Assembly (NCBI GenBank): GCA_964423785.1
Contig: CAYRGZ010000002.1
Location: forward strand, 1 to 49,612
Length of the DNA: 49,612 nt
Source: an uncultured Desulfobulbia bacterium
Lineage (GTDB): Bacteria > Desulfobacterota > Desulfobulbia > Desulfobulbales > S012-135
Direction of reading: 5' to 3'
The notes under the pieces were generated by a model, which had not been told where the DNA came from, did not search any database, and was given only the letters and a program-made list of their open reading frames with translations. The first letter of the stretch is position 1; each line of letters starts with the position of its first letter. Both the position numbers and the translations under genes were made by a program. Positions 4,962-49,522 of the stretch are shown in pieces.

Positions 4962-4983
4962 TGGAATGCGAAAGGAGTGAACA

Positions 4984-5259
4984 ATGGGAACGAAGAAAGT
5001 GAAGTACAACAAGACCGGCATCGAACAACTCCCCAATAACAAACCTGTCCTGTACAGGATTGAAAGTGCCGGTGGGAACCAGAATTACGTTGGCATTGCC
5101 AAGCGCGGGCGGGTCCGGGAACGTATAGCCGAACATCTCGGCGAGATTCCCGGGACAACTGTTCGTATCGAGCAACTCAGTTCGATCGAAGAAGCACGGC
5201 AAAAAGAGGCGCGCGTAATCAAACGAAACCAGCCGAAATACAATAACCAGGGGAAATAA
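4984..5259 (+). CDS. Stand-alone GIY-YIG nuclease domain protein
   Basis: 91 aa. PVLYRIES...NYVGIAKRGRVRERIAEHL...EEARQKEARVIKRNQPKYN fits the GIY...YIG...R...E...N layout. The SD is AAAGGAG. The stop overlaps the hsdM start (TAATG). Confidence 0.75.
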   Translation: MGTKKVKYNKTGIEQLPNNKPVLYRIESAGGNQNYVGIAKRGRVRERIAEHLGEIPGTTVRIEQLSSIEEARQKEARVIKRNQPKYNNQGK

Positions 5260-8374: not shown

Positions 8375-8378
8375 GGAA

Positions 8379-27915: not shown

Positions 27916-27930
27916 GCCTCCCCTGGATGG

Positions 27931-28962
27931 TCACCCATCGCTTTCGGCCGCCTCATCGTGCCGCTGGCGGGCGTTTTGTACGGCATGGTGGGCGAAGACG
28001 AGAAAAACGGCGAGAAAGAGGCTTGTCACCATGGTGAGGGCCACGATGAGGGACCGCTTCGGTTTGTACTTCCTCTCGGGTACGAAGGGCGGGTCGAGGA
28101 CCTTGAAGGTGATGTTCTCCCGGGCCTCGGAGATCTTGGCCAACTCGAGCTGCTTGCGCAGCTCGGTGTACACGGTTTGGGCCGCCAGCCGCTCCCGGGT
28201 GATCTTGGCCAAGGTGAGTTCCTCGCTCGGCACCTGCCGTTCCCAGTACTCCAGCTCGGCGGTGGCCTTGGCGAGTTGCTTCTCGACGAATTCCCGTTCG
28301 CGTCGGGCGTCAGTGACGTACTCGTTTTCCAGGAAGAACTGGAGTTCATCGATGACGTGCTGCAGCATCTCGGCGCAAAAAGCCGGATCTTCCCCCTCCC
28401 AGGCGATGGTCACGAGGTCGGTTTTCTTATCCTGTGACACCGAAAAGAGATTGTCGAGGACCTTCGATTGCAGGGCCTTGACCACGGTAGGCGCGTCGGC
28501 AGGGTCCTCCACCGTCCAGGTCTTGCGGTTCGGGTCCCAGATGTCCGGGTAGAGGACCGGCAGAAGATTGTACTTCTTGATCAGCCGTTCCTTCAGGGTG
28601 CGGCTGTTCAGAAAGTTCGTGATGCCGGACCCGCCGCCCGGCAAGGAGATGGGCAGGGGCAGGCTGCCCACCAAGCCGGAGAGGGCCCCGAGACCGGATT
28701 GTTCCTTTTGCACCGGCGCCAGGACCGCCTCGGAGCGGTAGATCACCGGCAGGACGTAGAGGGAGACCAGCACGGCGGCCGCGGTGGCCAGGAAGGTGAC
28801 GCCGGCGATGAACCAGCGGCCGGACCAGATCACCCGCCAGAGATCCAGGAGGTCGATTTCGTCTTCCTCGTAGGGCGGCCCGAAGGCGGGTTGCAGGTAG
28901 ACTATCTCCTTGCGCTGGTCGGTGGCTGGCGGTTCGTTTCCCATGGTGCGATCGGTGTTCAT
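27931..28962 (-). CDS. Wzz-type polysaccharide chain-length determinant (PCP family, no kinase domain)
   Basis: 343 aa. IDLLDLWRVIWSGRWFIAGVTFLATAAAVLVSLYVLPVIYRSEAVL is the typical Wzz N-terminal TM segment. A coiled-coil periplasmic region and a C-terminal TM helix (SLIVALTMVTSLFLAVFLVF) follow. Confidence 0.8.
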   Translation of the reverse strand: MNTDRTMGNEPPATDQRKEIVYLQPAFGPPYEEDEIDLLDLWRVIWSGRWFIAGVTFLATAAAVLVSLYVLPVIYRSEAVLAPVQKEQSGLGALSGLVGSLPLPISLPGGGSGITNFLNSRTLKERLIKKYNLLPVLYPDIWDPNRKTWTVEDPADAPTVVKALQSKVLDNLFSVSQDKKTDLVTIAWEGEDPAFCAEMLQHVIDELQFFLENEYVTDARREREFVEKQLAKATAELEYWERQVPSEELTLAKITRERLAAQTVYTELRKQLELAKISEARENITFKVLDPPFVPERKYKPKRSLIVALTMVTSLFLAVFLVFAHHAVQNARQRHDEAAESDG

Positions 28963-28975
28963 CCGTGCAGGCGGT

Positions 28976-35200: not shown

Positions 35201-38200
35201 TCCGGCCCGCTGCAGGTAGTTGGCCGGGTTGGGCGGTGCGTTGTGCATGGCGACTGCCGACAGACCGCCGATATCGACACCCATCTCCATGGTGGTGGAG
35301 CAAGAGAGCAGGTTGATCCTGCCGACCTTGAAGTCTCGCTCTCGCTCCGTCAGGGTGACGGCAGGGAGCTGGGCCGAATGTTCGGCGCAGCGGAAATACC
35401 TGCTGAACTCGGCTATCCGGTCATTGACGTTCACCCATATTCCCTGGCGGCGCAGCGAGGTCACCGTCTCGTCCGTCTCCAGCCATCTTTCCGCCTGTTC
35501 AGGAGAACTCTTGGCCCAGAACGGGTCGGGTAGCACCGGCATGCTTATCCGTCGACAGCGTGCGAGTTCCGGGACCGGGTTCTCTGGGAGATAGGGCGTG
35601 ACACCACGGAACGTCACCGGAAGAACCCTCCGAGTAACCGGACAGAACCATGCCTCACGCACTTGGCATATTTCCGCCTGGTCCGCCATGTTCAGGACAT
35701 ATCCCTTCTCCGTGGCAGTCAGCACGGTGCGGCAGTCCTCCCACAGCGCCCGTAGCAATTCCTCGATGGTGTGGCGCTGATCGGTATCCTCCAGATTCAG
35801 TTCCAATGCATGGGCCAGCATCCGCACCAGGCGGGACCGCCGCCTACCGGGCGTGGCCGTAGACGGCCACGTCTCGTGGATAAAGAGCTTTTCCTCTTCC
35901 CGACCCGGTGGCAGCATCACAGTGGGGCGACCTGGGTAGCCAATCCAGCGCATGGTATCTTTGCCGATGGCCACCGCTGTCTTGAATCTCACGGCAAAAT
36001 CCAGGAAGATCCGCGCCAACACACGCCATTCTTCGTCGGAGATCCGCAGCCGGGCCGCAACGTCCGGCACGCGGTCGATCTTCTTCAACCCACTGTAGTC
36101 GATGGCGAGCATGCCGTTGGTTTCCAGAGACCATTGCCGTTTCGGCCTGCGGAAGAATTCCCGCCACAGGCAAAGCTCGGCCAGTTGGTTGTTCTCCAGC
36201 CCCAAACACTGCTCTTTTAGAGTCGGAAGTAAGTGGCGATTGAAAATCGGATTGCTCAGCAACAGATCGCGAGCTTCGATCCATTGCATCCTGCCAATAG
36301 GCGATGATGCAAGTTCTGCCAATTCCTTTTTCTTCTCCTCGAGAAGATTCTGTAAGACAGGACTGCCACGTGCCAATCTCTCAAGCTCGGCAACTTCGTT
36401 TTCAAGTTTTTCTCGTTTTCCTTCGGTGTCGAGTGGTCTTTTGTTTGCCACGCCATGGTAGAGTAGACTACGGACGAAGTCCCGTTCCGCGGCCATTTGC
36501 ATCTTCACGGCAATCCTTGCCGTTCCCTGTCGGCTATCCGTAAAACTCAAAATCCTGCGGCCATCCCACGGCAGGAGATCCTTGCCCCCCATGGGAGGTA
36601 GATGGCCGAGCAGGAGCGGGATGGCGGTCTGCAGAAAGAACGGCGCCCCAAGTCGGACGGGAATCCCGAGCCGGCCGTATCGCTCCGGCTCATTGCAAAA
36701 CGGACAGTGGATGACATCACCCTCGTCTGGCCCGAGGAGATGAATGGGAACCCCGCCGCTCCTTTCTCCGCGCCAGTCGAGAACACCATCGGCAAGCAGG
36801 GTAACCCTATTCCCCTTGGGCGGGGCCACGATTATCCGCCGCAGGCCCGGACCGACCGACTTTTCGACATCGTCGCCGTTGTCATCGATACTTTCCTGGT
36901 CCACGGGGTCGAGCTCCTGCCGGAATTCGTCCTCATCGATTTCATAGACATCCGGATTGAGCCGATCCTCGCCCTCGAGCGACTGCTCCAGAACCGCCAG
37001 ATGCTCATCCCCGCAATGCCGGCACTGCATCAGCTCGAAGACGGGAAACCCGCAGGCATCACAGGATTTATGGCGTTCGAGAAAAACCTTGCCAAAGGGC
37101 CATTCCTCGTCGTCCAGTCTGGTATTCTTCCTGCCCTCACACTCGGGGTTGGCGCAGGCCCAGAGTCCGGCCAGTGTTCTCTGGAAAAGATGGCCCCGTA
37201 AGGGCAGAAAGGCCCCCTGCCCCTTTCCTCCGACAGCCTGGGTAGCCAAGTCGAGCAGTTCCAGACTACGGGACAGGGTTTCGGTCTCCCTTTTTCGAAA
37301 GATCCTCTCGGCAATCTCGGACAGGGTATGTGCTCTCCTGGCCAACGCTGTCCGCAGTTCACGCATGGCCGGCTGGCCGCAGAGCATCATGAACCGCTTC
37401 TCCGGCTCCGCCTTCCGTAGGGCACGAAGGTCCGGCACGATGCCGTTTCCTGTCCTCGTCTCTACCTCGGGCAGCTCCGGGATCTCCCGCTCTCCCATGA
37501 CAACGCTGATCCGCGAGGGGCTTACCCCGGCAATGTCGGCGAGAAACTCTCTGAGGCGGTCGGCGGCATCCTCTCCGTCGGCGATGGTTGCCGATGTGGC
37601 GATGAAATGGACATCCTCGGGCCGGCAGCCGAAACCATGCAGCACCCGGCGCAGCAGTAAGGTCAGTTCGGCAGCCTGGGAACCGATGTAGGTGTGGGCC
37701 TCGTCGATGACGATCCAGCGCAGCTTCCCCTGTGACGCATCCAGGATCGGCCGGTCATCGTTGCGGACGAGCATGTACTCCAGCATGGTGGCATTGGTCA
37801 CCAGAATGGGCGGCGGTTCGTTGCGTAGCCTCTTCCTATCCGCGACCTCGCTCTTCCATCGTGAAGCCCTGGCCTCGAGAGGGGTCTCCCCGTTGTACAG
37901 GCAATACCTGATCTTGCCGCCAAACGGCTCGGACCAGGCGGTCAGCCGATCCTTCTGGCTCTTGATCAGGGCATTGAGCGGATACAGAAACAGTGCCCGC
38001 ACCCCGACGAGTCTCTCCTGTCTCTGCTCCACTTCCCGGGCAAGGTCGTTGAGGATGGGAATGAGAAAACACTCGGTCTTGCCGGAGCCCGTGCCGCTCG
38101 ACACGAGAACGGAGCGCGGCGGCGTGACCGACAGGGCCTCCCATGTCTCCAACTGATGCCTGTATGGACGGCGATTCTCGGGAAAGACATAATCCTCGCT

Positions 38201-38476
38201 CATGCCTTCCACTTTGGTGGCTAGAGCCTTGACCAGTGACGGCTGTAAGAGGGAACCGGCAAGATCGGCGAAGGTCTTGTCCGCAGATTTCCAGCCAAAG
38301 GTGGTCTCGAAGACCAAGTCGGCCAGAAAGGAATGTTCCATCCCCGGCTGCTGCTCGAAAAGCTTTCTCAAGTGCTCGCGTAGCGGGTTGTTGCGAAAGC
38401 TCAGAATGCCAAGAGAGGCCCGGGTGGCCCCGCGGTTCAGATGCCTGACAAGGGAAGTGAAGAAAGTGTCGGTCAT
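32255..38476 (-). CDS. druE: Very large DEAD/DEAH-box helicase with DUF1998-type Zn-Cys module; DruE-like (Druantia)
   Basis: 2073 aa. Helicase motifs: VSSGTGSGKTECFLIPIL (I), VIDEAHTY (II), TSATIAD (III), TTMEMGVDIGGL (V) and QRAGRAGRRG (VI). Downstream Cys clusters are CLVCGAV...CQYCGNG, CLRCGR and CPRNCDSACQACLLTY, typical of DUF1998/MrfA-type Zn binding. The size and the large gene immediately upstream fit Druantia type III. The SD GGAG lies 9 nt before the ATG. Confidence 0.7.
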   Translation of the reverse strand: MTDTFFTSLVRHLNRGATRASLGILSFRNNPLREHLRKLFEQQPGMEHSFLADLVFETTFGWKSADKTFADLAGSLLQPSLVKALATKVEGMSEDYVFPENRRPYRHQLETWEALSVTPPRSVLVSSGTGSGKTECFLIPILNDLAREVEQRQERLVGVRALFLYPLNALIKSQKDRLTAWSEPFGGKIRYCLYNGETPLEARASRWKSEVADRKRLRNEPPPILVTNATMLEYMLVRNDDRPILDASQGKLRWIVIDEAHTYIGSQAAELTLLLRRVLHGFGCRPEDVHFIATSATIADGEDAADRLREFLADIAGVSPSRISVVMGEREIPELPEVETRTGNGIVPDLRALRKAEPEKRFMMLCGQPAMRELRTALARRAHTLSEIAERIFRKRETETLSRSLELLDLATQAVGGKGQGAFLPLRGHLFQRTLAGLWACANPECEGRKNTRLDDEEWPFGKVFLERHKSCDACGFPVFELMQCRHCGDEHLAVLEQSLEGEDRLNPDVYEIDEDEFRQELDPVDQESIDDNGDDVEKSVGPGLRRIIVAPPKGNRVTLLADGVLDWRGERSGGVPIHLLGPDEGDVIHCPFCNEPERYGRLGIPVRLGAPFFLQTAIPLLLGHLPPMGGKDLLPWDGRRILSFTDSRQGTARIAVKMQMAAERDFVRSLLYHGVANKRPLDTEGKREKLENEVAELERLARGSPVLQNLLEEKKKELAELASSPIGRMQWIEARDLLLSNPIFNRHLLPTLKEQCLGLENNQLAELCLWREFFRRPKRQWSLETNGMLAIDYSGLKKIDRVPDVAARLRISDEEWRVLARIFLDFAVRFKTAVAIGKDTMRWIGYPGRPTVMLPPGREEEKLFIHETWPSTATPGRRRSRLVRMLAHALELNLEDTDQRHTIEELLRALWEDCRTVLTATEKGYVLNMADQAEICQVREAWFCPVTRRVLPVTFRGVTPYLPENPVPELARCRRISMPVLPDPFWAKSSPEQAERWLETDETVTSLRRQGIWVNVNDRIAEFSRYFRCAEHSAQLPAVTLTERERDFKVGRINLLSCSTTMEMGVDIGGLSAVAMHNAPPNPANYLQRAGRAGRRGEAGALSYTLCNSTPHGEAVFRNPLWPFTARLAAPRVSLHSRYIVQRHVNALVLSVFLGESAPDDLHRLTAGWFFESQDDEISAPWRRFVDWCSGPAEEHDGLRTGMRLLLRRTCLEGSSARETLDECSAMLKRAAEGWLDEVGALLKHLDNVKTPDGDSAAERAIGLQLQRFRKEYLLSELTTRGYLPGYGFPGEVVSLITTTAEELSRRRESKSREDNRMMRAGYPARDVAIAIRDYAPGTDTVLNGRVYRCGGVTLNWHIPADQEGPPELQSFRWIWRCLVCGAVGDSPVRPAICQYCGNGKQNHIKSYEYLQPSGFAVDIRHEPHNRIDVPQYIPVVDPLVSMGNAEWVTLPSVALGRCRVSSEAMIIHRTDGLYGNGYALCLRCGRADSMTPSGELPRIFTDAQGEPKPHKPLRGGKTVPGGEQDCPGSHEPWAIKRDLRLGVSRRTEVFELQLYSVTGQPVDETAAYTIGVALRRALAEKLGIVEREIGVTVAPVLDRDGHSIHSLYLHDTASGGAGYVSQAIHLLPELFERVRDNLACPRNCDSACQACLLTYGTQYHIDKLDRNHALKLVDDRFMALWGLPQSLQVFGPETRLEMEPLALALRREYQKISAHEVRIFLAGDPRLWEPISWRLVDELRSLNQAGVKIDMVIPEETLDRLEPSQLDELIALSTMVGVPHVYCPKSAPVLTEGKAKMYRAVEIGSERASVRWAASREETLVPGQEWGTGSGEGQFVRIREDRALEAVPDVWSIRKVVDLGKVDRDTMTIEIGHEMDGNLDDFGTKAWSLLLSKDEGLKRKLTVEVPLSEVAYSDRYLCSPLMALLLRNLLKALKTFSGGIVDATKVRVTTANLHSNTSRPTTYLYHNWQNNRIRRQVYNILFDWCLDFIFDDALSRRDLPHARVLTLSWPDGTGYEIRLDQGVGYWGIDGGSAPFPFHQRAEHQAECLLKTQIAIKAMSRSHATSWYVRQA

Positions 38477-38501: not shown

Positions 38502-41500
38502 TCAACACAAGGCCGTCAGTTCGAGGCAAAGGGCAAAGGCAAAGGCCATGTCGAACCAGTCGCGGTCGAAATTGCGCAATTCCTGCAATTCGAAGAGGAC
38601 ATCCTTGTCACAAGACTCTCCTCTGGCTGCGATGAACGCGGCGACGAAGGGTGCGCAGCGCACCGGGCGGTAGAATCGGCTCAAATTGTGAAAGACGAAC
38701 TCCTCTCTGAACCCTGGCCGCGTTACCCATTTCAAGATCCGACGACCCGGTGGATATTTTTCGTCAGCGTTGTGTCGGTTCTGGAATTTCCGCTCTTCTT
38801 CCCTGATGAAACCAAGGATCACGTCCGGAGCCTGCCGGGCAAGCATGAGCTCGCTGTTGTCGAGCGTCTGAGCCGGGAATAGAGTTAGAGAAAGCCAGTC
38901 ACAGACTTGACGAAAAAACGGCTGCCGGCCCGATACCCTCTCACGAAAGGCGAGAAAGTCATCACGAACATATCTCTCGCCGTCAGGTAGATCCGCAAGG
39001 GCCTGCCGCATAGCGCCGAAATAGTTTTCAGCAGACTTCTTCCAGTCCCCGACCGGGACGAGATGCCAGGAGAAGGGTAGAGCGTCGGCCAGGGACCACA
39101 CCGTATCGAAATCATCGTCGGAGCTTCTCAGAAGAGCCATGACCATGGTTTGCGGATGGCCGACCATGGCACTCAGCAGATCATAGGTGCAGGCGGGATA
39201 ACGGCGGCTCAAGGCCACGAAGGTGTCGACCCGCGGCCAGTCGGGATGATTTGGGTCGTCGGCGAGCCGCTGGAGTAGCTCGTCCATCAACCGTTGTCTG
39301 AGATCGGCGTCCGCCTGCCGGATGGCCTGCTCCAGCTCACCGCCGCCAGGGGCAGCCTCTCCGGCGACATTCCACAGCACAGGGCGAAACCGGGGCCAGT
39401 CGCCGTCCTCCCCCAGCACCAACCACGGCCCTGGTTCGAGTCGATCTGGTACTTCCCAGGAATCGCCGGTTCCGGTAAGTTCGAGAACGACCTGTTCCGC
39501 ATCCGGATCCCAGAGCCTCATCATCGATACCCGCAACCGCTGAGGCCATTCATCCCCCAGGTCACGCAGGGATTCCTCGCTCAACCGGATGATGCCTGCG
39601 TCGTAATCCGGAACAAACCATGATTCGAAGAGACCGACCCGTAGCTCGGCCAAGACATCTCCGCCCTGGCCCAGGATGCGAATACTGCCCACGGCGTCGA
39701 GGTTGCCGGTAAGGGCCAGCCAGGACTTCACATCTTCTTGAATATGGAGGAGGTCGAACTCGCCACGGCCGTATTCGTCCGCCTGGATATGTCGTTCCAG
39801 AAAGAAACCGATGGGTTCGTCATGGGACCGAACATTGGCTTCCAGGACAAAGGACCGGTTGCCCAAGGGCTGCTGGACCACGGCCTGCACGACCGCGAGC
39901 CTGGAAACGGCCACCCTCGCGCCAGGGGGTAGAGCCTTTCCTCCGAGAACGAAGGCGGCGCTGCTACCGGGAAACGGCAAGGTCAGGGTGAGAAAACGGT
40001 TCTCATCCCAGTAGAGCCGGCAGGAAAACTGCGGCATCGGCAGGGGCAGTTCGGTACGGCAGAGGAGCCGCACGCCGTCATCGCATCTTTCCACGGCAAA
40101 CTGGTAGCCTTCGATCGTTTCCGGCCGGACATCCGCCAACCGACCATCGGTCAACTTCAGGACGCCGCTGGTGATGGAATTACCGATTCTTTCCGCCTGC
40201 ACGGCGAAGGAATCGGGAACGAGTTGAATCCTACGCAAGAGAAGCAAGCGGTCGTCCCTGTCGACATACCGTATCCAGACATCTCCGGCGCAGGCATCGA
40301 GATCCGTACTCCAGTCTTCCCCCCTGGCTGGCCGCCAACTCGCCCTGGCCCCGGCAACGTCTTTGCGCAGGCCGCTTCGGCCGATGGAGACGAGACGAGG
40401 AATGCCACGATACGGCGGCGTTCCACCGAGAGAGACGGGCAAGGACAACTGCGGACCATCGAGAACCAGCTCTGCGGCCAGTTCCTCGACCGTGGAGCAT
40501 TGAAATGGCACGACGCCTACACCAGGATGTCGCCACCTTCCGCTGCCCCGCAACAAGAACACCATTCGCCCGCATTCAGTCGCTTCCCCCTTTGGCTCGG
40601 CCTCGCCGTCGAACTCCCCTGTCGGGGGTGCCAGGGCATAGACGCTTTCCGCCCTGGTCTTGACCGCCCCCTCGCCAATGAACCGCAGCTCGTTGTCATG
40701 GGCCTCGAAGAACCAGGGGAGTTCGCCAAGCTCCTGCTCGCCGGGGACGGAAAACCGATATTTCCCTTGTCCGTCACTGAGATAAAGTGCCGTGCCCGCG
40801 ACAGCGGCCCTGCCGGCAAGCCTGACGCCTCCCCTTGGCAAGATTTCACAACGGTAAACGGCTTCATCGCCTTTGCCCCTGAGAAGGGTCAGTAGGGCAA
40901 CCTGTTCCTGTATCCCGGCAGCCTGCAGAAACAGGCGCAGCCGGGGAATCTCCGTTATCTTTCTGTTGTTGCTCAGCTGCTGCAGGGCCAGGCCCGAAAT
41001 CTTTCTGGGAAGCTCGAGGCTCATCGACAGGGACCAGTGGCGGTCCCCGCGGACGAGGAGCCGCCGCCAGCGGATGTGATGGCGGGCAAGGCGTACACTC
41101 TCGTCCATCAGATTCTTGAGCAGCGCCTTGGCGATGTCGTTTTCCAACGGCAAGGGCAGCTCCATACGCCAGTCCGGCCTCTGATCATCGAGAGCGGCTA
41201 CGGGATCTTCGGTGTCCCCAACCAATTCCTGCAACTCGATGATTTTTCCTATCAGCTCGTCGCTCAACGAAAAAACGATCTCCTGCCTCAAGGAGGGGGG
41301 GAGATCGGCAGCACAGCGCCGAGCCAGAGGCAGTCTCTGCAGCACGCCGAACTTCTTTTCCTCATGATATACGTTTAGTACATTGCGAAAGAACTTCCTC
41401 AGAGATGCATTTTCCTTCTGCAGTAGCTTCAGCGGCAATCCACCCTCACAGGCAATGGTCACCAGAAACCGGCGGCTGCTTGCCGTTGTCAGCAATGGCC

Positions 41501-41822
41501 TCTTCCACCACTTCAGGCCATGCTCGACCACGGACGCAATCCAATTATGGCTGGGAACTTCCTGGCCGATTTCATTGAACACGGTTTCCCAGGCCCAACG
41601 ACCACCGTCATGACGGCGCCGCCAGGTCTCGGCAGCAAACAGACAGAACAACCGGTCGAAAACGAGACTCTGGCCTGCCCTTCCCCTGGCAAACTCCTGC
41701 CGGACCAGCTCCCTGAGTTCCAGATAATCTTTTTCCCTGATCTTGTACGCGTACAAAGGCCTGCCGTCGGGTTCTGCTGCCCTGCACGAGATGAAGAGCA
41801 CTTTGATGAGCCAGTTGTTCAT
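38502..41822 (-). CDS. Large protein of unknown function directly upstream of the DruE-like helicase; DruH-like by position and size
   Basis: About 1106 aa from MNNWLIKVLF (ATG at 41822, SD GGAGG 9 nt upstream); the listed ORF extends to 41894. I see no recognisable catalytic motif. The stop is 25 nt before the druE-like start. The assignment rests on synteny and size only. Confidence 0.5.
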   Translation of the reverse strand: MNNWLIKVLFISCRAAEPDGRPLYAYKIREKDYLELRELVRQEFARGRAGQSLVFDRLFCLFAAETWRRRHDGGRWAWETVFNEIGQEVPSHNWIASVVEHGLKWWKRPLLTTASSRRFLVTIACEGGLPLKLLQKENASLRKFFRNVLNVYHEEKKFGVLQRLPLARRCAADLPPSLRQEIVFSLSDELIGKIIELQELVGDTEDPVAALDDQRPDWRMELPLPLENDIAKALLKNLMDESVRLARHHIRWRRLLVRGDRHWSLSMSLELPRKISGLALQQLSNNRKITEIPRLRLFLQAAGIQEQVALLTLLRGKGDEAVYRCEILPRGGVRLAGRAAVAGTALYLSDGQGKYRFSVPGEQELGELPWFFEAHDNELRFIGEGAVKTRAESVYALAPPTGEFDGEAEPKGEATECGRMVFLLRGSGRWRHPGVGVVPFQCSTVEELAAELVLDGPQLSLPVSLGGTPPYRGIPRLVSIGRSGLRKDVAGARASWRPARGEDWSTDLDACAGDVWIRYVDRDDRLLLLRRIQLVPDSFAVQAERIGNSITSGVLKLTDGRLADVRPETIEGYQFAVERCDDGVRLLCRTELPLPMPQFSCRLYWDENRFLTLTLPFPGSSAAFVLGGKALPPGARVAVSRLAVVQAVVQQPLGNRSFVLEANVRSHDEPIGFFLERHIQADEYGRGEFDLLHIQEDVKSWLALTGNLDAVGSIRILGQGGDVLAELRVGLFESWFVPDYDAGIIRLSEESLRDLGDEWPQRLRVSMMRLWDPDAEQVVLELTGTGDSWEVPDRLEPGPWLVLGEDGDWPRFRPVLWNVAGEAAPGGGELEQAIRQADADLRQRLMDELLQRLADDPNHPDWPRVDTFVALSRRYPACTYDLLSAMVGHPQTMVMALLRSSDDDFDTVWSLADALPFSWHLVPVGDWKKSAENYFGAMRQALADLPDGERYVRDDFLAFRERVSGRQPFFRQVCDWLSLTLFPAQTLDNSELMLARQAPDVILGFIREEERKFQNRHNADEKYPPGRRILKWVTRPGFREEFVFHNLSRFYRPVRCAPFVAAFIAARGESCDKDVLFELQELRNFDRDWFDMAFAFALCLELTALC

Positions 41823-42006
41823 GCCCCCCCGCCTCCATAGCCATTGTTGGTTTCTGGTTTGGAGTCTACGCTGTTTTACTCTTGCTGGAGCCAAGCTCTT
41901 CTGGCTCCACAGAGCCGGACATCAAACTGGCGGCGTAACCCACGAAATTATCCACCTATCCACCTTATTCCGGCCGCCAAACTGTCCAACGATAGGGGGC
42001 CCACCT

Positions 42007-42924
42007 CTATGGACGTTCGGTCCGTCTCCCGATCAGGAGCATCGGTTCTGCAGCTGGATCGAACTCGGTCGTCGCAGGGTCGTATTGTCGGCAGCGAGTC
42101 TCGTATTGTTTCTTGTCGAGGAGCATGATGTCGTCGCTCTCGCCGTCGTGACCGGAGTCGAGACCGTGGAGAAAGGTGACTCCTCCGAGGTCGGTCAGAA
42201 TGTAACGGTTGTGGAGTCGTTGTCCGTTGGGGCGCTCCCGCCAACGGAAGAGGGTCACCCGGAGGCCCTTGGGGATCGCCTTCTCGTAAGAATCTCGCAG
42301 CCATTCGCTTGAGGCGCCGTCGTCCCCGGTATGTATCTCGATGGCATCCGGTGGTCCCACCGGCCGCTCTGCCGCCAGCAGCCTCAGGAAGGCGCTCAAG
42401 GAGCTCCTGTGCCGGGTCTTGGCCAGCACGAAATAGGGATCGACGAACTTCACCCACCGGCAGCGGCCGAGGAGCATTGCCAGTGCCTCGGCCATCTCCT
42501 GGGCGTTGCGGACGACGACCTTGCCGTGAGGCGTGTCCCATCCAGGACATGGCGAAATGGCTATGTCGTCTTCCTGCAGGATCGCCTCGTCGTCGTTTGG
42601 ATTGGCTCGAGCGAGGATCCTTCTGAAGGGATGGCGCTCGTGCTCGATGACGGCGTTCGAGAGCCACTCCTTGGAGTCGTCCCAGTGATAGTTCTTGCGC
42701 TTCACGGATGCCTCTTTCATTCTGGCCAGGAGTTCCTCGAGTCTCTTGCGCTCCATGTCGTCCGTGCTCTCGAACGCCGTCCAGACCATTCGTACCCAAT
42801 GTCTTGGATAGCGGGAGACGACTCGTCCCTTGCCAATGCCGAATGCGTCGATGAAGAACCGGCAGTCGCGAACGTTCCCCCACTTCGCGACCATTTCCGG
42901 CTCGAGGGCATACTCGTAGATCAT
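42007..42924 (-). CDS. Hypothetical partner protein of the ATPase; weak PLD-like HxRx4D motif
   Basis: 305 aa from MIYEYALEPEM. Its ATG overlaps the ATPase stop (ATGA, plus-strand tcat at 42921-42924). The C-terminal segment QRLHNRYILTDLGGVTFLHGLDSG loosely resembles an HxKx4D PLD motif with K replaced by R. The listed ORF starts at 42969. Confidence 0.55.
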   Translation of the reverse strand: MIYEYALEPEMVAKWGNVRDCRFFIDAFGIGKGRVVSRYPRHWVRMVWTAFESTDDMERKRLEELLARMKEASVKRKNYHWDDSKEWLSNAVIEHERHPFRRILARANPNDDEAILQEDDIAISPCPGWDTPHGKVVVRNAQEMAEALAMLLGRCRWVKFVDPYFVLAKTRHRSSLSAFLRLLAAERPVGPPDAIEIHTGDDGASSEWLRDSYEKAIPKGLRVTLFRWRERPNGQRLHNRYILTDLGGVTFLHGLDSGHDGESDDIMLLDKKQYETRCRQYDPATTEFDPAAEPMLLIGRRTERP

Positions 42925-44945
42925 TGGAACAACTCCTTGGCTCTCTCGGCGAAGAAACCGTTCGGCCAAGGTTTCGTGAAGTCTCCATCCTCGTCGACGG
43001 GGATGTGAACCACTCGCGAGCCGTCGTCCCCGGGTTCGACGTAGAGAATGGAGACGTCCGCGGGCGTGATCGGAGGGACGTCGTTCGGTAGCTCTCCGGA
43101 CGTCGTCTCCCTGATTCGGCGCAGAATGCGTAGGATGAGGTGCTCGGAATGCGTCTCGAGGATGAACGTGTTGCGTTTCTCCGTCTCGTACGAGGGAGCA
43201 CCGATGTATGGTTCCTTCTCCCGTGCCAATGCCCCCCGTATGAAGATGTCGCCCAGTTCCGCCTGCATGGCTGGATGCAGATGTAACTCTGGCTGTTCTA
43301 TCATGATGTTAGCGTAGAACGACAGACAGCTTTGAACGACGATCGGCAACAGTTGGCTGAAGCCGAAGCCGACATCCTTGATGTTTGCCTTGATCCCCGT
43401 CTTTCGGTCGATGAATCGCAAGACGAATACGCCACCGATATCCCTTTCCTCGTTCGACAGCTCCACTAGCTCGACCCGGTATCCGGCACGAATCCGAGCG
43501 AGCTCGTCGTTCACCCGATCCACGAGTTCGCCGTTCCTGTAGAGCAGGGCCGCGATGTTCTCTCCTTGCCGACCGAGTCCCACAGTTGGGTTGCCCTCTG
43601 CAATGTAGTATCTGTCGGGTTCCTTCCTGATGGGACCTATATACTGAATGCTTTCGAGGAATCTTTTTACGTGTGCTGCGACGAGAGGGGTGATCTGTCC
43701 AGGATGTATGGGATCCCAGTCGATGCGATATAATTTATCCGTTTCTATATATGATTTTGATATAGTTTTGTCTATCGTCATGCCGGCAAAACCGTCTGGA
43801 AGGAAAGAGCTATGTAGCCACGAGATGAAATCTACATCATAAGATGTATGTTCTTCGTAGAGCTCGAGAAATATCTTGTATCCAGGTCTACCTGAGCGCA
43901 ATTCTCGTTTCAGTCTCTCGAGATGGTCGTCGTGCTGGTCGACGATCATGAGTGCATCGAGGGCGGCTTCTGGTAGGTGTCGCTGCTCGTACAGTTTTCG
44001 TAGCCTTGCCATTTCCTCGGGGGACGCCTCCCGTCGGTCTATGACCATCGGGTAGTTGCGCCGATGAATATCGTGGTCGTCTCGCCCAGGTTCGTCGTCT
44101 TCGAGGAACATGTCGTACGTTCTGTTCAGGTGCGATATCGTGATCTGCTCCGACAGTAGGCTGTCTCGTATTTTCGTCAGCCTCTCGCAGTCTTCGTCGT
44201 TCTTGGCGATCCTGTTTTCGATCTTTCGTATGAGTCTATCATATTTGTGCTTTTCGTCTCCTGTCATTTCTCGTGTAAACGAAATCGGAGGTGGTGATAT
44301 TGTTGTATTTGGATTTAAAATTGCTTTGATGAAACCAAATATCGATCGATTTATCTCTTCTTGGAATTCATTGAAGAAATCGAGCCAGAAAGGATCATCG
44401 ATGTTGAACTTGCTGTATCCTTCTTTTTCATGTCGAAGGATTGGGGCGACTCCTTTGTCGAGAAATATTTTCGTCTCCGAGAGCCGTGGTAGGCCGTTGG
44501 CATTGGCAAAGGAGAAGGATATGCATATGGCGTCATGTTTTCGCAGGCAACGTTTCAGTCTGTCGGCATGGCTCGACAGCTCCGGGTCTCTCATGAGCCA
44601 TTCAGTTTCGCCGTATGCGTATGATAGAGTTTCGTCGAAGAGCTCGTCCGTATCCATTTCGAACTCGAATGCTATCTCGAAGGTGCGCGATGTGTCGCGG
44701 CCGTAGACGATGTCTTGGTAGCGACCGAGATCCACGTACTTTCCCTTCGGTATCAAGGGGGGAGCGGTGTCGTGGGGCGAAGCGAATGGGGTGTCGAGCG
44801 ACTGGGCGAGCAGGGCGAGGCATTGGAGGATGGCGCTCTTTCCGGCGGAGTTCTGTCCGAAGATCAGGGTGATCGGTCGAATCGGAATGGTGATCGTCCG
44901 GCCAAAGGGTTTGAAGTTGCTGATTCGGATCTCTCGGAGAATCAT
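42921..44945 (-). CDS. SMC/ABC-type (AAA_15/21-like) ATPase with DUF3696-like C-terminal region
   Basis: 674 aa. The N-terminus is MILREIRISNFKPFGRTITIPIRPITLIFGQNSAGKSAILQCL (SMC-like start with Walker A). The C-terminus has VGFGFSQLLPIVV, MIEQPELHLHPAMQAELGD (Walker B/D-loop) and ILETHSEHLILRILRR (H-loop). The SD is AAAGGAG. Confidence 0.85.
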   Translation of the reverse strand: MILREIRISNFKPFGRTITIPIRPITLIFGQNSAGKSAILQCLALLAQSLDTPFASPHDTAPPLIPKGKYVDLGRYQDIVYGRDTSRTFEIAFEFEMDTDELFDETLSYAYGETEWLMRDPELSSHADRLKRCLRKHDAICISFSFANANGLPRLSETKIFLDKGVAPILRHEKEGYSKFNIDDPFWLDFFNEFQEEINRSIFGFIKAILNPNTTISPPPISFTREMTGDEKHKYDRLIRKIENRIAKNDEDCERLTKIRDSLLSEQITISHLNRTYDMFLEDDEPGRDDHDIHRRNYPMVIDRREASPEEMARLRKLYEQRHLPEAALDALMIVDQHDDHLERLKRELRSGRPGYKIFLELYEEHTSYDVDFISWLHSSFLPDGFAGMTIDKTISKSYIETDKLYRIDWDPIHPGQITPLVAAHVKRFLESIQYIGPIRKEPDRYYIAEGNPTVGLGRQGENIAALLYRNGELVDRVNDELARIRAGYRVELVELSNEERDIGGVFVLRFIDRKTGIKANIKDVGFGFSQLLPIVVQSCLSFYANIMIEQPELHLHPAMQAELGDIFIRGALAREKEPYIGAPSYETEKRNTFILETHSEHLILRILRRIRETTSGELPNDVPPITPADVSILYVEPGDDGSRVVHIPVDEDGDFTKPWPNGFFAERAKELFQ

Positions 44946-45035
44946 GGGGGTGGCTCCTTTCCGTGTGCTCGCGAGGTCGGGGTTCGTTCTCCTTGGTTCG
45001 TATGCTGGGGAGGTGTCTTCGTGGTAGTGAGTCTC

Positions 45036-45051
45036 AGCAACGGTCGTGCCA
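45036..45051 (-). promoter_or_regulatory. Sigma-54 (-24/-12) promoter
   Basis: The minus strand reads TGGCAC-GACCG-TTGCT, a perfect match to TGGCAC-N5-TTGCW. It begins 3 nt after the stop of the second sigma-54 activator gene and lies about 90 nt upstream of the ATPase ATG at 44945. Confidence 0.7.
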
Positions 45052-45053
45052 GT

Positions 45054-46724
45054 CTATTCGAGGCCGTACCTTCGGAGCCAGTTGGTCAGTGTCTGGTAGC
45101 TCGGCAATCCCAGGAGTTTTGCGGCCTTGGTCTTGTTGCCCCGGGTTTCGGCAAGGCCTCTTTCGAGGTAGTGGACCGCCACGGTCTTCATGATTCCCGG
45201 GAGATCGATCCCCTGGCTGAGGGGGCGATCGAGAATGGTTTCGGGCGTCCGTCCGGCAGTGGGCAGGGGGAGGATGGCCTCTCGAATGTCGTCTGCCCCG
45301 ATCTCCTCTTCTGCCGACCACACGGCGGCCCTGGTCAAGGTGTTCTGCAGTTCCCGGACGTTGCCCGGCCAGGAGTGGGTGAGCAGAAGATTTCTTGCGG
45401 AGGCAGAAATTCTCTTCTGTTTGCGGGCCGCTCCTTCGCAACCTTCCTGACCGATCCGGGCGAGAAAGTGATCGATCAGTAGGCCGATGTCGCCCTCCCG
45501 TTCGCGCAAGGGCGGGAGTTTGATCACACCGACGGCCAGGCGGTAGAAAAGGTCCTCCCGAAAGTTTCCGGCTGCGACTTCGGCGAGGAGATCCCTGTTG
45601 GTCGCCGCAACGATCCGCACGTCGATCTTCTTCGCCCTGGTTGCCCCGATGCGTTTGATCTCTCCCTCCTGCAGGGTCCGCAGGAGCTTGACCTGCATTG
45701 GCTTGGGCAGCTCGCCGATTTCGTCGAGAAAGACGGTGCCGGTGTGGGCCGCCTCGAAATGACCGATCCTTGCGCTACTGGCTCCTGTGAAGGCCCCTTT
45801 CTCGTGGCCGAAGAGCTCGGATTCCATGAGTTCCGCCGGAATCGCGCCGCAGTTGATGACCACGAAGGGCTTGTCCTTCCTGGGGCTGGCATCGTGGATG
45901 GCGCGGGCGAACAGTTCCTTGCCGGTGCCGGACTCGCCCTCCAGGAGGACGGGGATGGAGTGGGGTGCGATACGCCGCGCCTTGAGCACCGCCCGTCGCA
46001 TCACTTCGCTCCGGTGGACGATGTCGTCGAATTCCGGGGCGGCATCGGGCAGGCCGGCGGCCAGTCGTTCGAGTCTCTCGTCCGCTCTCGTCAGGAGATC
46101 GGGGATGAAGTCTGCGGAGATGTCGAAGGGGACGGACGCGGTGCGGACGCCATGCTCCTTCGACGACTCGATCAGCTCCGCCGGGAAGCGGGTCTTGGCG
46201 AGCAGGATCCAGACCGCGGCCATCGCCGGCGTTCCAGGGCTCAGGTGGAAGACGAGGTCGGTGCCGCGCCCGTGTTGCCGGAGTCTCTCGTCGACGATGG
46301 CCGAAGCGGCTCGATGGATCTCGCCGAAGTCCGTTGGGGAGGAGAGTCGAACGTGGTGGAGAGAGATCGTTGCCGGTGTTCGTTGCCGTAGCCAGTCGAC
46401 ATACCGGTCGGCCTCGGCCTCTTCCCAATCGTTGAGCAGCACGATTTCCCCGTACGAGCCCACCTCGGCCGCCTGGGCCACCGGACCCGCGCCGATGTCC
46501 GCTCGTCCGGCGGCCGCCTTCAGGTCCGTCGCACCCAACCAACAGAACAGGATCCTCGTCTTCATGGCTAGTGCTATGGCTACAAGATTTCTTGCGAAGA
46601 TGCAAATCGTTTCGTCGTCTAGTGGATGTTTGGTTGCGCTTCGGGGGGTAGGAATACCCGTTGGGCATGTCGAGAGGCGGTTGTCTCGTGAGTCTCGCTC
46701 GATCTCCTCCCGTTCGTATTTCAT
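45054..46724 (-). CDS. Second sigma-54-dependent activator with RtcR-like (CARF-type) N-terminal domain
   Basis: AAA+ motifs: LLEGESGTGKE, GAFTGA and VFLDEIGEL. The C-terminal HTH is KTKAAKLLGLPSYQTLTNWLRRYGL. The N-domain ILFCWLGATDL...VFHLSPGTPAMAAVWILL parallels the RtcR TGTHVAQICWFLL segment. The start at 46724 has SD GGAG; an alternative start lies at 46565 (MKTRILF). Confidence 0.85.
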   Translation of the reverse strand: MKYEREEIERDSRDNRLSTCPTGIPTPRSATKHPLDDETICIFARNLVAIALAMKTRILFCWLGATDLKAAAGRADIGAGPVAQAAEVGSYGEIVLLNDWEEAEADRYVDWLRQRTPATISLHHVRLSSPTDFGEIHRAASAIVDERLRQHGRGTDLVFHLSPGTPAMAAVWILLAKTRFPAELIESSKEHGVRTASVPFDISADFIPDLLTRADERLERLAAGLPDAAPEFDDIVHRSEVMRRAVLKARRIAPHSIPVLLEGESGTGKELFARAIHDASPRKDKPFVVINCGAIPAELMESELFGHEKGAFTGASSARIGHFEAAHTGTVFLDEIGELPKPMQVKLLRTLQEGEIKRIGATRAKKIDVRIVAATNRDLLAEVAAGNFREDLFYRLAVGVIKLPPLREREGDIGLLIDHFLARIGQEGCEGAARKQKRISASARNLLLTHSWPGNVRELQNTLTRAAVWSAEEEIGADDIREAILPLPTAGRTPETILDRPLSQGIDLPGIMKTVAVHYLERGLAETRGNKTKAAKLLGLPSYQTLTNWLRRYGLE

Positions 46725-47005: not shown

Positions 47006-49522
47006 ATGTCCTGGGTCCCTCCTGTAAACAGCAAACCATTTGATACGTTGCTACGTCTTGCGGTGGATGCTGGCCTCTCGGAGGAGAGGTTGCGAGAGTT
47101 CCTCTGGCTCCTGAACGCTCATCCCCAGCTCACCTCTTTCGTGCACGTCTGTATCAATCTCTCGGAATCTCTGCGGGCCTTGCAGAGGCAGCGGGTGCGC
47201 TTCTCGGATTACGGAATCGAAGAATGGCCGAAGATCGTCGAATGGGTGAAAAAGGGCGCCTCATCCTTCAGGGAGTATTTCGACGAGGAGTTCTTTCATC
47301 TGCCCAAGACATCATCGCACCACCCACTTTCCTACAAGGGATTGGGACGGCATGGTGTCTACTGTCTCTTCTGCAATGCACATGAGCACGAAAGATACCG
47401 TGGACGCTACAGTCTGTTGTTGGGACATCTGTTGCTTGCGCATGTGGAGTCGATGCGGGAGTTCGTGCCGCTGTACGTCTGGGAACATTACCAGGACGAG
47501 GCGGAGATCCTCTACGACCATCGGCCGGTCTACGCCGCGACCCTGGCTCTACGTGAGCTCAGCCTGGCGAAGCATCTCGATCACTTCCTCGCCGTCGCCC
47601 GTGCGATGCCGACCTCCCACTACCTCGCGTACATCGAAGGGATACGGCCAGCCGACTTCGGGGAGTTCGCCAGGCACATCGGCAATCTCCGCAACTTTCT
47701 CCTCAATCGCTGTGTACGGAAGCGGAGCAGGAAGAGAGAGGACGACGAAGAGGGCGGTGGGAGGGGGCCGGTGGAGTCCGGCCACATCGGGATCGCCACG
47801 GATGATACCGACGACTTCGATCTTGGCGATCCGGACGATCCCGCATACGACTGGAAGCGGATGGAGGTGATAGGCCGCGGAGCCGATCCGGCCCGCTTGG
47901 ACGAGGACGACCTCGAGGCGGCCGGGGAGGACGTGCCTCTCGATGAATTGGCGGCCGACGACGACATCCTGCTCGGTGAACAGGACTGTGAGTCCGCCCG
48001 TAAGGGACTGGCTGGCATCGTCCATACGGCAAGGGCACAGATGCGTCACCGGAGCATGGTCAATCAGTTGTTGCCATGGAGCTACGGGCTGTTGACCACC
48101 AGCGAGTACACAGAGCTGGTGAGGATGTTCGACGAAAGGTTCCAAGAACTCGAAGGACGGTGCGATGAGTGGACGGAGGAGGAGAGCCTGGAGGCCGAGA
48201 CCATCGTCATGGTGAGCATCTGCTTCTGGCTGGGGTGTGGACTGGAGGCGGTGCATGGCATGCACGTCATCAGCCGGGATCACAATCCGCCATGCCAGTT
48301 GGGCTTATACGAGCGACGAAGGCAAGGAGAATCCGTGGGGTACGAGTGGCGGGTGCGCAGCATCAATGTCGAGCACTTCACGGATAGGGCGGATTCCGCC
48401 GTAAAGTCGAAGCCGAGGGTCGACTATGTATCCCTGCCAGATCTCGTCGGTCTTGCGAAGAAGTTCGGTGTGATCAGGAAGCGGCGCCCAGGTAAAAACA
48501 CTGAGTTCTTCGGGCGGCCGCTCGAAGAATACCGGCAGGCGTTTCGGAAGTTGCTGCAAAACATGAGACATGGTGAGCGCATCACGATCACGAAGATCGA
48601 GAGGTTCCTCTTCCACCAGGTGGTCATGCGAGTCGGCGACGTGGTGGTGGCCGCGGCGATTACCGGCCAGCACCACTGGCTCACCCGGGTGCGAGCCCAT
48701 TACTCCACCCTCGATCTCAGTTTTCTTCGAGGCATCTATGCCGAAACCGTTCGCGAGATCGTTGCAAAGACTAGCCTGACACCATCCGGCCCACGAATGC
48801 CTCCTCCCAATCTATCGAACAAGCATGTGGGCAGTCGGATGTGTCCACGATTCGACACGGTGGTCGAGGTGGTAGCCAACATGAAGCGACGGCTGAAGTC
48901 CTGTCCAGCCGGCGGATTACAGAGGATATGGGAGTATCACAACCGATACACCATCTACACGGTCTACCTCTTCGGCTTCGCCACCGCCTGCCGGGCCATC
49001 GTCGATCCCTTGCGTCGTGTCTCGATCATCGACGGTGAGTCTGGTCTCGCCGTCCTGCCGGACAAGGAGGACGAGTATGGAAGCAAGAGCAGGCCCCTGT
49101 GGATCCCTGGTTTCGTCCGGAAACAGCTCGAAAGCTATGAGCGCCACCGTGCCTGGTTGTTCGAGAACGGTGTGGTCGCCAACCCTGCGGATGCCGAGAG
49201 ATGGGGAGGTTTCTTCCTCGACGAGGTGGGGAGGGCGGAACGGGTACGGCCGAGACGAATCGCCGAGCTGACGGAACGGTACTTTCCGTTTCCGGCGAAC
49301 GTCCATCGCCGGTTCGTCCGGACGCATCTGCTGGAGTCCGGATGTCCACCAGAGGTGATCGATGCGTGGATGGGGCACTGGTCCCTGGGCCAGCTCCCGT
49401 GGGGACGGTTCGCTTCCCTGTCTTACGCCGACTACGTTGCAGTGCTCCGTGCCCATCTGTTGCCGCTGCTCGAGGAACTGGGGTGGAGCCACGTGCCGAG
49501 TTTGCTTGCGGAGGAGGAGTAA
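47006..49522 (+). CDS. Large atypical tyrosine recombinase/integrase-like protein
   Basis: 838 aa. The C-terminus aligns to integrase box II: ANVHRRFVRTHLLESGCPPEVIDAWMGHWSLGQ...SYADY, compared with HDLRHTFATHLLENG....I...LGH......Y. A candidate box I Arg lies in FATACRAIVDPL. The N-terminal half is unrecognised and includes CLFC...HLLLAH and a long acidic linker. Confidence 0.6.
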   Translation: MSWVPPVNSKPFDTLLRLAVDAGLSEERLREFLWLLNAHPQLTSFVHVCINLSESLRALQRQRVRFSDYGIEEWPKIVEWVKKGASSFREYFDEEFFHLPKTSSHHPLSYKGLGRHGVYCLFCNAHEHERYRGRYSLLLGHLLLAHVESMREFVPLYVWEHYQDEAEILYDHRPVYAATLALRELSLAKHLDHFLAVARAMPTSHYLAYIEGIRPADFGEFARHIGNLRNFLLNRCVRKRSRKREDDEEGGGRGPVESGHIGIATDDTDDFDLGDPDDPAYDWKRMEVIGRGADPARLDEDDLEAAGEDVPLDELAADDDILLGEQDCESARKGLAGIVHTARAQMRHRSMVNQLLPWSYGLLTTSEYTELVRMFDERFQELEGRCDEWTEEESLEAETIVMVSICFWLGCGLEAVHGMHVISRDHNPPCQLGLYERRRQGESVGYEWRVRSINVEHFTDRADSAVKSKPRVDYVSLPDLVGLAKKFGVIRKRRPGKNTEFFGRPLEEYRQAFRKLLQNMRHGERITITKIERFLFHQVVMRVGDVVVAAAITGQHHWLTRVRAHYSTLDLSFLRGIYAETVREIVAKTSLTPSGPRMPPPNLSNKHVGSRMCPRFDTVVEVVANMKRRLKSCPAGGLQRIWEYHNRYTIYTVYLFGFATACRAIVDPLRRVSIIDGESGLAVLPDKEDEYGSKSRPLWIPGFVRKQLESYERHRAWLFENGVVANPADAERWGGFFLDEVGRAERVRPRRIAELTERYFPFPANVHRRFVRTHLLESGCPPEVIDAWMGHWSLGQLPWGRFASLSYADYVAVLRAHLLPLLEELGWSHVPSLLAEEE

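Follow-up and report, generated by a model that had tools for sequence, protein, structure and literature searches.

To our knowledge, the switching-on of defence islands has been described for only a few regulators. The named family closest to the proteins reported here is RtcR, which in E. coli and Salmonella has a CARF-AAA+-HTH architecture and acts on the sigma-54 promoter of rtcBA; the E. coli genes rtcR and rtcBA are transcribed away from each other. Deletion of the CARF domain of RtcR was shown to give constitutive activity and ligand binding was shown to give oligomerisation, i.e. the domain is a negative regulatory domain freed by its ligand (PMC7790460). In the main text of Makarova et al. 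(2014; PMC4012209), RtcR-like CARF-NtrC-HTH proteins were linked to restriction-modification (R-M) systems and not to Rtc, and sigma-54-dependent activation of the downstream genes was predicted, while in the main text of Bell et al. (2024; PMC11090510) RtcR homologues were found to head superoperons with Type I R-M systems, Druantia III and CoCoNuTs. As a computational prediction, the control of defence genes by a bacterial enhancer-binding protein (bEBP) with a CARF domain is already published in these two papers; keyword searches of one literature library gave no experimental work on a module of this type. Here, two modules of this type are described in a 49,612-nucleotide (nt) stretch from an uncultured Desulfobulbia bacterium (contig CAYRGZ010000002.1; hereafter the window): module 1 on the plus strand, headed by activator 1, and module 2 on the minus strand, headed by activator 2, which is the main subject.

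The activator 2 locus is probably a compact sensor-switch cassette that stands before defence genes and is driven by sigma-54. This interpretation, which had been put forward in a preliminary description of the window, is supported by sequence conservation, with corrections to the limits of genes and to the names of proteins; a specialist would not be surprised by it, and it is now sharply testable. A promoter locked to the stop codon of the activator gene, a candidate intragenic binding site and an unannotated partner family with a PLD-like fold appear to be new details, and no description of a stop-locked promoter, of the binding motif or of its intragenic copy was found by keyword in the main texts of PMC4012209 and PMC11090510. 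The two elements at the core of the cassette are:

45054 to 46565, minus strand: activator 2 gene, encoding a CARF-AAA+-HTH protein of 503 amino acids (aa) (Pfam, PADLOC, homologues, predicted fold)
45037 to 45051, minus strand: predicted sigma-54 promoter TGGCACGACCGTTGC, with TGGCAC at -24 and TTGC at -12 (sole exact match in the window; position conserved)

The stop codon of activator 2 is TAG (45056-45054, minus strand), and two bases separate it from TGGCAC-GACCG-TTGC-T (45051-45036). A perfect sigma-54 promoter just past 45054 had been claimed earlier, and indeed the exact pattern TGGCAC-N5-TTGC, with the GG and GC dinucleotides 10 nt apart, was found there (45051-45037) and nowhere else in the window; transcription is predicted to start near 45025. 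The number of matches with at most one mismatch in the window (six, compared to 3.3 expected) was not statistically remarkable. Since statistics from the window alone were weak, a comparative survey of homologous loci was undertaken, covering 80 loci that encode CARF-domain relatives in species-representative genomes (436 relatives from many phyla were found overall), 66 of which contained a complete activator gene. An element with at least nine of the 10 consensus positions within -25 to +30 of the activator stop was detected in 56 of these 66 loci, and in 52 of the 56 it starts 0-4 nt past the stop codon. The 66 loci belong to more than 10 phyla, including Thermodesulfobacteriota, Myxococcota, Planctomycetota, Latescibacterota, Gemmatimonadota, Acidobacteriota, Pseudomonadota and others. 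Random control windows from the same loci reached this score in 81 of 13,200 cases (0.6%). The 55 distinct promoter sequences gave the composition T52 G55 G55 C54 A55 C43/T12, N5, T51 T55 G55 C49, with GG in 55/55, GC in 49/55 and a variable 5-nt spacer; conserved GG and GC with a free 5-nt spacer read as the signature of sigma-54, and sigma-54 dependence of the module-2 promoter is predicted on this basis. A chance origin of the match is untenable given the comparative evidence, in line with the earlier assertion that the arrangement was not a coincidence, and the comparison of loci indicates that the promoter junction is kept across the activator 2 family while the genes behind it change.

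It is extremely unlikely that the match is fortuitous or a relic, with activator 2 regulating a distant regulon and the downstream genes being unrelated neighbours. The lack of enrichment in the window would fit such an explanation, as would the 10 of 66 loci without a good match at the stop, in six of which (five from Myxococcota and one from Longimicrobiales) the -12 element reads TTGA and not TTGC; these 10 loci also weigh against the sigma-54 cassette, as does the lack of an rpoN gene in the window. The TTGA form, which is without the usual GC, may be a -12 variant or may mark decay of the element. Against a fortuitous match stand the locked position in the activator 2 family compared to the background of control windows, a fixed promoter in all loci of the sister subfamily (see below), the co-orientation and tight spacing of the cargo, and the lack of an alternative sigma-54 motif nearby: in the upstream intergenic region and between the cargo genes, the best sites reached at most 7 of 10 positions. 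Separate sigma-54 promoters for the divergent upstream gene, DruH or DruE were rejected by the same measure, as no site exceeded 7 of 10 positions. The TGGCAC-N5-TTGA form was located at the stop codon in the Myxococcota loci L060, L065, L076, L077 and L079 and 15 nt before the stop in L078 (Longimicrobiales). In a more distant relative on a Rhodoferax antarcticus plasmid, TGGCAC-N5-GTGC overlaps the last codons of the activator.

A minus-strand activator ending at 45054 had been reported in the preliminary description, and all three peptide motifs quoted for it (SPGTPAMAAVWILL, GESGTGKE and GAFTGA) were present. Its start is almost certainly not at 46724 but at the ATG at 46565, giving 503 aa, because the homologues have 503 aa and, in the long open reading frame (ORF), residue 57 is the first that aligns with the PADLOC model. 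More than 120 clusters of homologues were found, all of about 503 aa and with 67-77% identity. Activator 2 matched Pfam PF00158 (Sigma54_activat) with 235 bits over the whole model length, and the AAA lid was also matched; the Walker A motif GESGTGKE, the FLDEIGEL motif and the GAFTGA loop could be read straight from the sequence. The C-terminal Fis-type HTH was matched by Pfam HTH_8 (26.0 bits compared to a cut-off of 22), and the PADLOC model RtcR_PspF2--CARF_AAA_HTH (PDLC01995) aligned at its positions 2-481 of 481 with 665 bits (E = 1.4e-200). The domains span approximately residues 1-145 (CARF), 182-348 (AAA+, including GAFTGA) and 466-500 (HTH_8). The CARF fold was tested by AlphaFold2 on the N-terminal 195 residues followed by a Foldseek search of PDB. 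The model was confident to about residue 145 (blocks mostly with pLDDT 80-96), and every one of the top 16 matches was a CARF protein, with E down to 5e-5 and with Csm6, Can2, Cdn1, Card1, Cad1 and VC1899 as the best PDB matches. As motifs after strands 1 and 4 of the Rossmann-like CARF fold, the domain carries CWLGATD and HLSPGTPAM. Family matches and the modelled fold support the assignment of activator 2 as a CARF-AAA+-HTH bEBP.

The label of RtcR-like activator can be kept. RtcR is the best named family for activator 2 (NCBIfam NF038308, 347 bits), but orthology is not upheld, because the scores were under the curated thresholds (650 bits for NF038308; Pfam RtcR domain PF06956, 16.3 bits compared to a cut-off of 23.1) and the targets are not rtcBA. 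No rtcB or rtcA was found beside activator 2, the downstream genes encoding an ATPase, a partner protein, DruH and DruE, and no RNA-ligase or cyclase family was found downstream in 63 loci among the cluster representatives scanned (all clusters with at least three members and some smaller ones). Judged by these comparisons, neither activator in the window is an RtcR orthologue, and activator 2 is RtcR-like. Unlike the RtcR/rtcBA arrangement, activator 2 is co-directional with its predicted target and the promoter abuts the activator stop codon.

By analogy to RtcR, PspF and NtrC, the CARF domain would, when no ligand is bound, hold the AAA+ domain from oligomerising. On binding of a signal of infection or nucleic-acid damage, the activator would assemble on its DNA sites and loop to the closed sigma-54 holoenzyme complex, where the GAFTGA loop of the AAA+ domain would contact sigma-54 and the use of ATP would open the promoter. 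The resulting transcript would encode the ATPase and its partner, and probably DruH and DruE too, since no terminator was found between the partner gene and DruH. The likely benefit is tight silencing: basal activity is close to nil at sigma-54 promoters, so that defence genes which are costly or harm their own cell would stay off until needed. Candidate signals are an RNA fragment with a 2',3'-cyclic phosphate end, as for RtcR, or a cyclic oligonucleotide.

On the ligand the evidence is split, as the sequence leans to RNA ends of the RtcR type and the nearest solved folds bind cyclic oligoadenylate (cOA). It is conceivable, and in our view somewhat unlikely, that the promoter and its control by activator 2 are real and that the signal is cOA or another cyclic nucleotide from a separate sensor (type III CRISPR Cas10 or a CD-NTase), not an RtcR-type RNA end; the module would then be the transcriptional output arm of a nucleotide second-messenger pathway. 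The best folds for the N-terminal domain are those of cOA-binding CARF proteins and not of RtcR (Csm6 with a cA6 analogue; Can2, Card1 and Cdn1 with cA4), which counts against an RNA-end signal, and activator 1 was also matched by the Pfam Csm6 CARF model. The sub-threshold score of the Pfam RtcR domain in activator 2 points the same way, and the 54-71% identity of the CARF domain among relatives across phyla suggests one universal small ligand. However, no cyclase or Cas10 gene was found in the window or the surveyed flanks, the motif after strand 4 (SPGTPAM) is without the K/R typical of cOA binders, which is a feature of RtcR-like CARFs according to the main text of Makarova et al. (PMC4012209), and the best family at sequence level is RtcR. 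Furthermore, the fold search was unable to rank RtcR, because a sequence search of the PDB copy with the activator 2 CARF profile yielded no solved relative, RtcR CARF included.

Downstream of the promoter of the proposed sigma-54 cassette, four genes were found:

42921 to 44945, minus strand: NsnB-like ATPase of the ABC type (AAA_15/AAA_21), 674 aa, with DUF3696 as its C-terminal helix (Pfam, PADLOC)
42007 to 42924, minus strand: partner of 305 aa, its start overlapping the ATPase stop (ATGA; translational coupling), with a predicted PLD-like C-terminal fold (homologue clustering, model)
38502 to 41822, minus strand: DruH of Druantia type III, 184 nt past the partner gene (PADLOC DruH3, 285 bits; start codon checked)
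32255 to 38476, minus strand: DruE of Druantia type III, DEAD/Helicase_C/MZB, 2073 aa (PADLOC DruE3, 2254 bits; Pfam)

The distance of about 90 nt that had been given between the promoter and the first of these genes was correct, being 90 nt from the -24/-12 element to the ATG at 44945. The description of the product as an SMC-like ATPase was not, since the SMC_N match covered only the N-terminal 43 residues and was under the Pfam cut-off. By its family matches it is an OLD/ABC-type AAA_15/AAA_21 ATPase with a DUF3696 tail, and its PADLOC matches were PDC-M55A, NsnB and HEC-03B (1e-36 to 1e-51). NsnB of the Menshen system is described with the same architecture (PMC12065111). For the partner, a family of 451 homologues was found, all without annotation and without a match in Pfam, PADLOC or NCBIfam. 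A 417-aa ORF at 41948-43201 was considered as the partner and rejected as spurious: it had no family matches, and clustering and the ATGA overlap favoured 42007-42924. The AlphaFold2 model of the partner (pLDDT 94.6) had SauUSI nuclease, TrmBL2 and PLD as top Foldseek matches, with a probability of 1.0, although E was only about 1e-3 and TM about 0.3. Residues H238-N239-R240 are invariant, with R at the place of K in the PLD motif HxK(x)4D, and the downstream D is not invariant. Nuclease activity of the modelled fold is no more than plausible, because H-N-R stands where PLD enzymes have H-x-K.

In all nine surveyed loci that carry the partner, it was located directly behind the ATPase, and by analogy the pair is likely an ATPase-controlled effector of the PARIS/Septu/Menshen type. 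Like Menshen NsnB-NsnC, PARIS AriA-AriB and Septu PtuA-PtuB, it consists of an ABC ATPase and a small coupled partner with a predicted nuclease-type fold, and the ATPase shares the AAA_15/AAA_21 domain and DUF3696 tail of NsnB. Unlike these systems, the pair has a partner that matches no model of the three databases, NsnC included, and no NsnA (DUF262) gene was found between 32255 and 46565.

DruH followed by DruE, a large DUF1998/MZB helicase, is the composition and canonical order of Druantia III. Unlike Druantia III as described, the two genes are here located downstream of an ATPase/partner pair with predicted sigma-54 control, and in the main text of Bell et al. (PMC11090510) Druantia III is linked to RtcR-like regulators only in CoCoNuT contexts. 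None of the CoCoNuT genes (McrB-like GTPase CnuB, McrC-like nuclease and CnuH helicase) was found from the promoter to the end of DruE. The 184-nt gap between the partner gene and DruH showed no terminator-like or sigma-54-like site, and the transcription unit may run past the ATPase/partner pair into DruH-DruE. The genes beyond DruE encode polysaccharide export. Compared to the RtcR-like defence regulators in the main texts of Makarova et al. and Bell et al. and those of the PADLOC group, activator 2 has the same architecture and the same location at the 5' end of a co-oriented string of defence genes, with Type I R-M as the usual first cargo of its relatives and Druantia III as a recurrent one; it differs in that the cargo here is without R-M or CoCoNuT genes and contains the ATPase/PLD-fold pair first and Druantia III second.

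That the arrangement is a recurring control module for defence genes, as had been proposed from the window alone, is supported by the cargo of 63 surveyed loci, which overwhelmingly consisted of defence genes, co-oriented and tightly spaced. The first downstream gene was HsdR in 45 of the 63 loci, usually followed by HsdM and HsdS and often by the ATPase/partner pair, and it was the ATPase in four. In the remaining loci, the first cargo was a DruE-containing pair (L072), DUF4007 with a PglX-like methylase, a reverse transcriptase or a RecQ-type helicase, or, in a few cases, it was of unknown type; BREX-like types were among the variants. Elsewhere, the ATPase/partner pair was located at the end of an R-M operon, in the canonical order activator-HsdRMS-ATPase-partner, and, without any activator, among housekeeping genes (L083). 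In many of the loci with HsdR first (L004, L005, L011, L013, L019, L034, L036 and others; HsdR of about 1125 aa), the ATG was found about 12-15 nt past the -12 TTGC, within a motif like TTGCTnTATAGGGGGCATGnnnATCATG, which implies that the leader of the first cargo gene is very short or absent in these loci. On the mobilizable plasmid NZ_CP019242 of Rhodoferax antarcticus (L086; 37966-51460), the activator relative heads a VWA/PP2C phosphatase/kinase triad, behind which large AAA proteins and one DUF2357 protein are encoded, an order that resembles the CoCoNuT type III-A arrangement in the main text of Bell et al.

The other module of the window is organized similarly, with the following elements:

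630 to 2126, plus strand: activator 1, the first CARF-bEBP, of another subfamily with 39% identity to activator 2 (Pfam, PADLOC, alignment)
2237 to 2251, plus strand: predicted module-1 sigma-54 promoter TGGCATGGGCATTGC, 110 nt past the activator 1 stop (conserved)

In 53 of 53 homologous metagenome loci, the promoter of this subfamily was located about 110 nt past the stop and was followed by a conserved leader, compared to the 0-4 nt of the activator 2 subfamily. Because the promoter of the second subfamily is fixed at this distance in every locus, the claim that the window contains two copies of one regulatory design holds for both families (53/53 for activator 1 and 56/66 for activator 2), with a geometry specific to each subfamily. 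The cargo of activator 1 (2595-12305) consists of HsdR (788 aa), an HsdM/S fusion, a 341-aa PDC-M14A-like protein and a 1323-aa methylase-specificity-STAND fusion. The closest relatives of activator 2 (76-77% identity; L081 and L082) head this same cargo, in which HsdR, HsdM and HsdS are joined by two proteins of about 340 and about 1320 aa, the larger one a methylase fusion. Since relatives of activator 2 head the cargo of activator 1, regulators and cargo appear to have been exchanged, and the gene orders indicate that the two regulator subfamilies are interchangeable over one cargo. In the activator 1 subfamily (2127-2310 of the window and loci L087-L166), a conserved block like ACCAGGGTTTAAGATGTTTCAACCTGGGTTGAAGG was found directly past the stop, and the leader ends in AGAAAGGAGCAnCCATG, followed by a conserved small ORF (2308-2592 in the window, 94 aa). 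This ORF was considered as a small SNase-like first cargo gene on account of a DGDT motif; the assignment was rejected, as no Pfam match was found.

Where activator 2 would bind was deduced from a repeated motif with two defined copies:

46581 to 46594, minus strand: candidate operator/enhancer CAAGAAATCTTGTA (palindrome CAAGA-AA-TCTTG), 29 nt before the activator ATG (exact motif match)
45384 to 45417, minus strand: conserved intragenic DNA block AAGAGAATTTCTGCCTCCGCAAGAAATCTTCTG, codons ~384-394 (lowest synonymous variation in the gene)

The second copy, CAAGAAATCTTCTG (45397-45384), is nearly identical to CAAGAAATCTTGTA and is contained in the intragenic block, which is located about 340 nt upstream of the -24 element. 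A motif scan of 82 loci (1.24 Mb, both strands, at most three mismatches) gave 200 matches overall, 60 of which were within -100 to 0 of an activator start and 47 at +1100 to +1199 of an activator gene. Upstream of the gene, many loci have two copies in tandem, at a distance of about two helical turns. In a synonymous-constraint analysis of a codon-aware alignment of 65 activator genes (276 degenerate codon columns), the third-position entropy in the intragenic block was the minimum of the gene (0.84 compared to a gene mean of 1.60), and five of the six most constrained degenerate columns were in the block. The G+C content at third codon positions (GC3) was 0.31 in the block compared to 0.63 gene-wide, and its AT-rich codons were retained also where the GC3 of the gene is above 0.7. 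In subfamily 1, no such constraint was seen at the equivalent codons; this subfamily has a conserved block in its 110-nt spacer instead.

Since the promoter abuts the activator stop codon, an enhancer would find no space between the genes, and we infer that sites of the CAAGAAATCTTGTA type are the candidate operator and enhancer of activator 2, the upstream palindrome probably serving autoregulation as well. In this respect the locus resembles PspF/pspA, since tandem palindromes by the activator's own start suggest autoregulation; pspF is autoregulated, and activation at a distance by looping is established for NtrC. Unlike PspF and NtrC, activator 2 has a CARF domain as sensor, not a partner protein or a receiver domain, and its candidate enhancer is located within its own coding sequence. 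The distances to the promoter, about 340 nt for the intragenic and about 1.55 kb for the upstream copy, exceed the usual enhancer distance of 80-150 nt, and the intragenic constraint could serve other ends (autoregulation, a roadblock or an RNA element); both points speak against an enhancer in the proposed cassette. NtrC-type activators are known to loop over distances of this length. A further-reaching proposal, which we make tentatively and hold to be rather doubtful, is that the activator gene is a self-contained, horizontally mobile plug-in switch of about 1.6 kb, with a 5' operator, an enhancer in synonymous positions and a promoter fused to the stop codon, which would silence any downstream cargo as long as the CARF domain detects no nucleotide or RNA signal of infection; cassettes of the two subfamilies, with different DNA specificities, would work side by side without cross-talk and swap regulators and cargo over evolution.

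It could also be that the -24/-12 element is functional but mainly a boost, the relevant expression coming from read-through of the activator transcript and from internal sigma-70 promoters, with DruH-DruE as a separate unit. Read-through from the activator's own promoter is possible, because no terminator fits between the stop codon and the promoter, and the 184-nt gap could hide an independent DruH promoter, so that both features count against sigma-54 as the main control. Methylases of R-M systems are made constitutively for host protection, and internal promoters must therefore exist in the relatives with HsdR-HsdM-HsdS cargo; the main text of Bell et al. (PMC11090510) assumes internal promoters too, and the ATPase/partner pair of L083 exists without an activator. 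Nevertheless, neither the gap nor the leader showed a sigma-70-like site on the minus strand when scanned with the consensus, the sigma-54 element is conserved as strictly as would befit the main control point, and the conserved operator-like site by the activator start suggests that activator transcription is kept low. A mere boost is, taken together, distinctly unlikely.

Between the promoter and the ATPase gene of module 2, one further element was listed:

44946 to 45036, minus strand: leader of about 80 nt with the Shine-Dalgarno (SD) sequence AAAGGAGCCACC at 44960-44949 (sequence)

A structured RNA or riboswitch in this leader was rejected, as it showed no Rfam match and its folding was no better than that of shuffled sequence (z = 0.97). 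An origin as the remnant of a deleted hsdR 5' end was also rejected, since an alignment of seven loci with HsdR first showed no convincing homology past the promoter. The SD contexts of the first cargo genes of the two modules had been described as alike, which is true of a 12-mer, AAAGGAGCMACC, with exactly two occurrences in the window, at 2295 and 44949, a statistically unusual finding; the likeness does not extend to the spacing between the 12-mer and the ATG, which differs between the modules, or to the rest of the leader, which is dissimilar. Because the module-1 copy belongs to a leader conserved throughout the activator 1 subfamily and the spacing in module 2 differs, the likeness is weak evidence for anything beyond a strong SD, and it was rejected as proof of common origin.

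The locus and the survey supply parts that can be tested, namely an exact promoter with a predicted start and a candidate motif in two defined copies, and deletion of the CARF domain of activator 2 is predicted to give constitutive expression. Cultured carriers are Desulfobulbus oligotrophicus, Geomonas azotofigens, Pelotalea chapellei and, on its plasmid, Rhodoferax antarcticus. If the proposed control is true, bacteria exploit sigma-54 promoters, with their near-zero basal activity, to hold back restriction and abortive-type effectors as long as no nucleotide or RNA signals danger, and a compact inducible cassette would be provided. The PLD-fold partner family is, by its model, a candidate new effector.

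Divergent from activator 2, an 838-aa ORF (47006-49522, plus strand) showed no match in Pfam, PADLOC or NCBIfam. Polysaccharide-export genes (YjbH, Wzz/GNVR and Poly_export/SLBB; 25786-31507, minus strand) are located between the two defence modules, and because they separate these modules the window contains two islands and not one continuous island. Downstream of activator 1 and co-directional with module 1, NACHT/STAND ATPases (8334-13917) are located just upstream of a gene for a 2612-aa protein (13851-21689, plus strand), the sole Pfam match of which was an N-terminal Sacsin-type domain. Behind this gene, a DrmD-like SNF2 helicase (PADLOC, 956 bits) is encoded at 21686-24379 on the plus strand.

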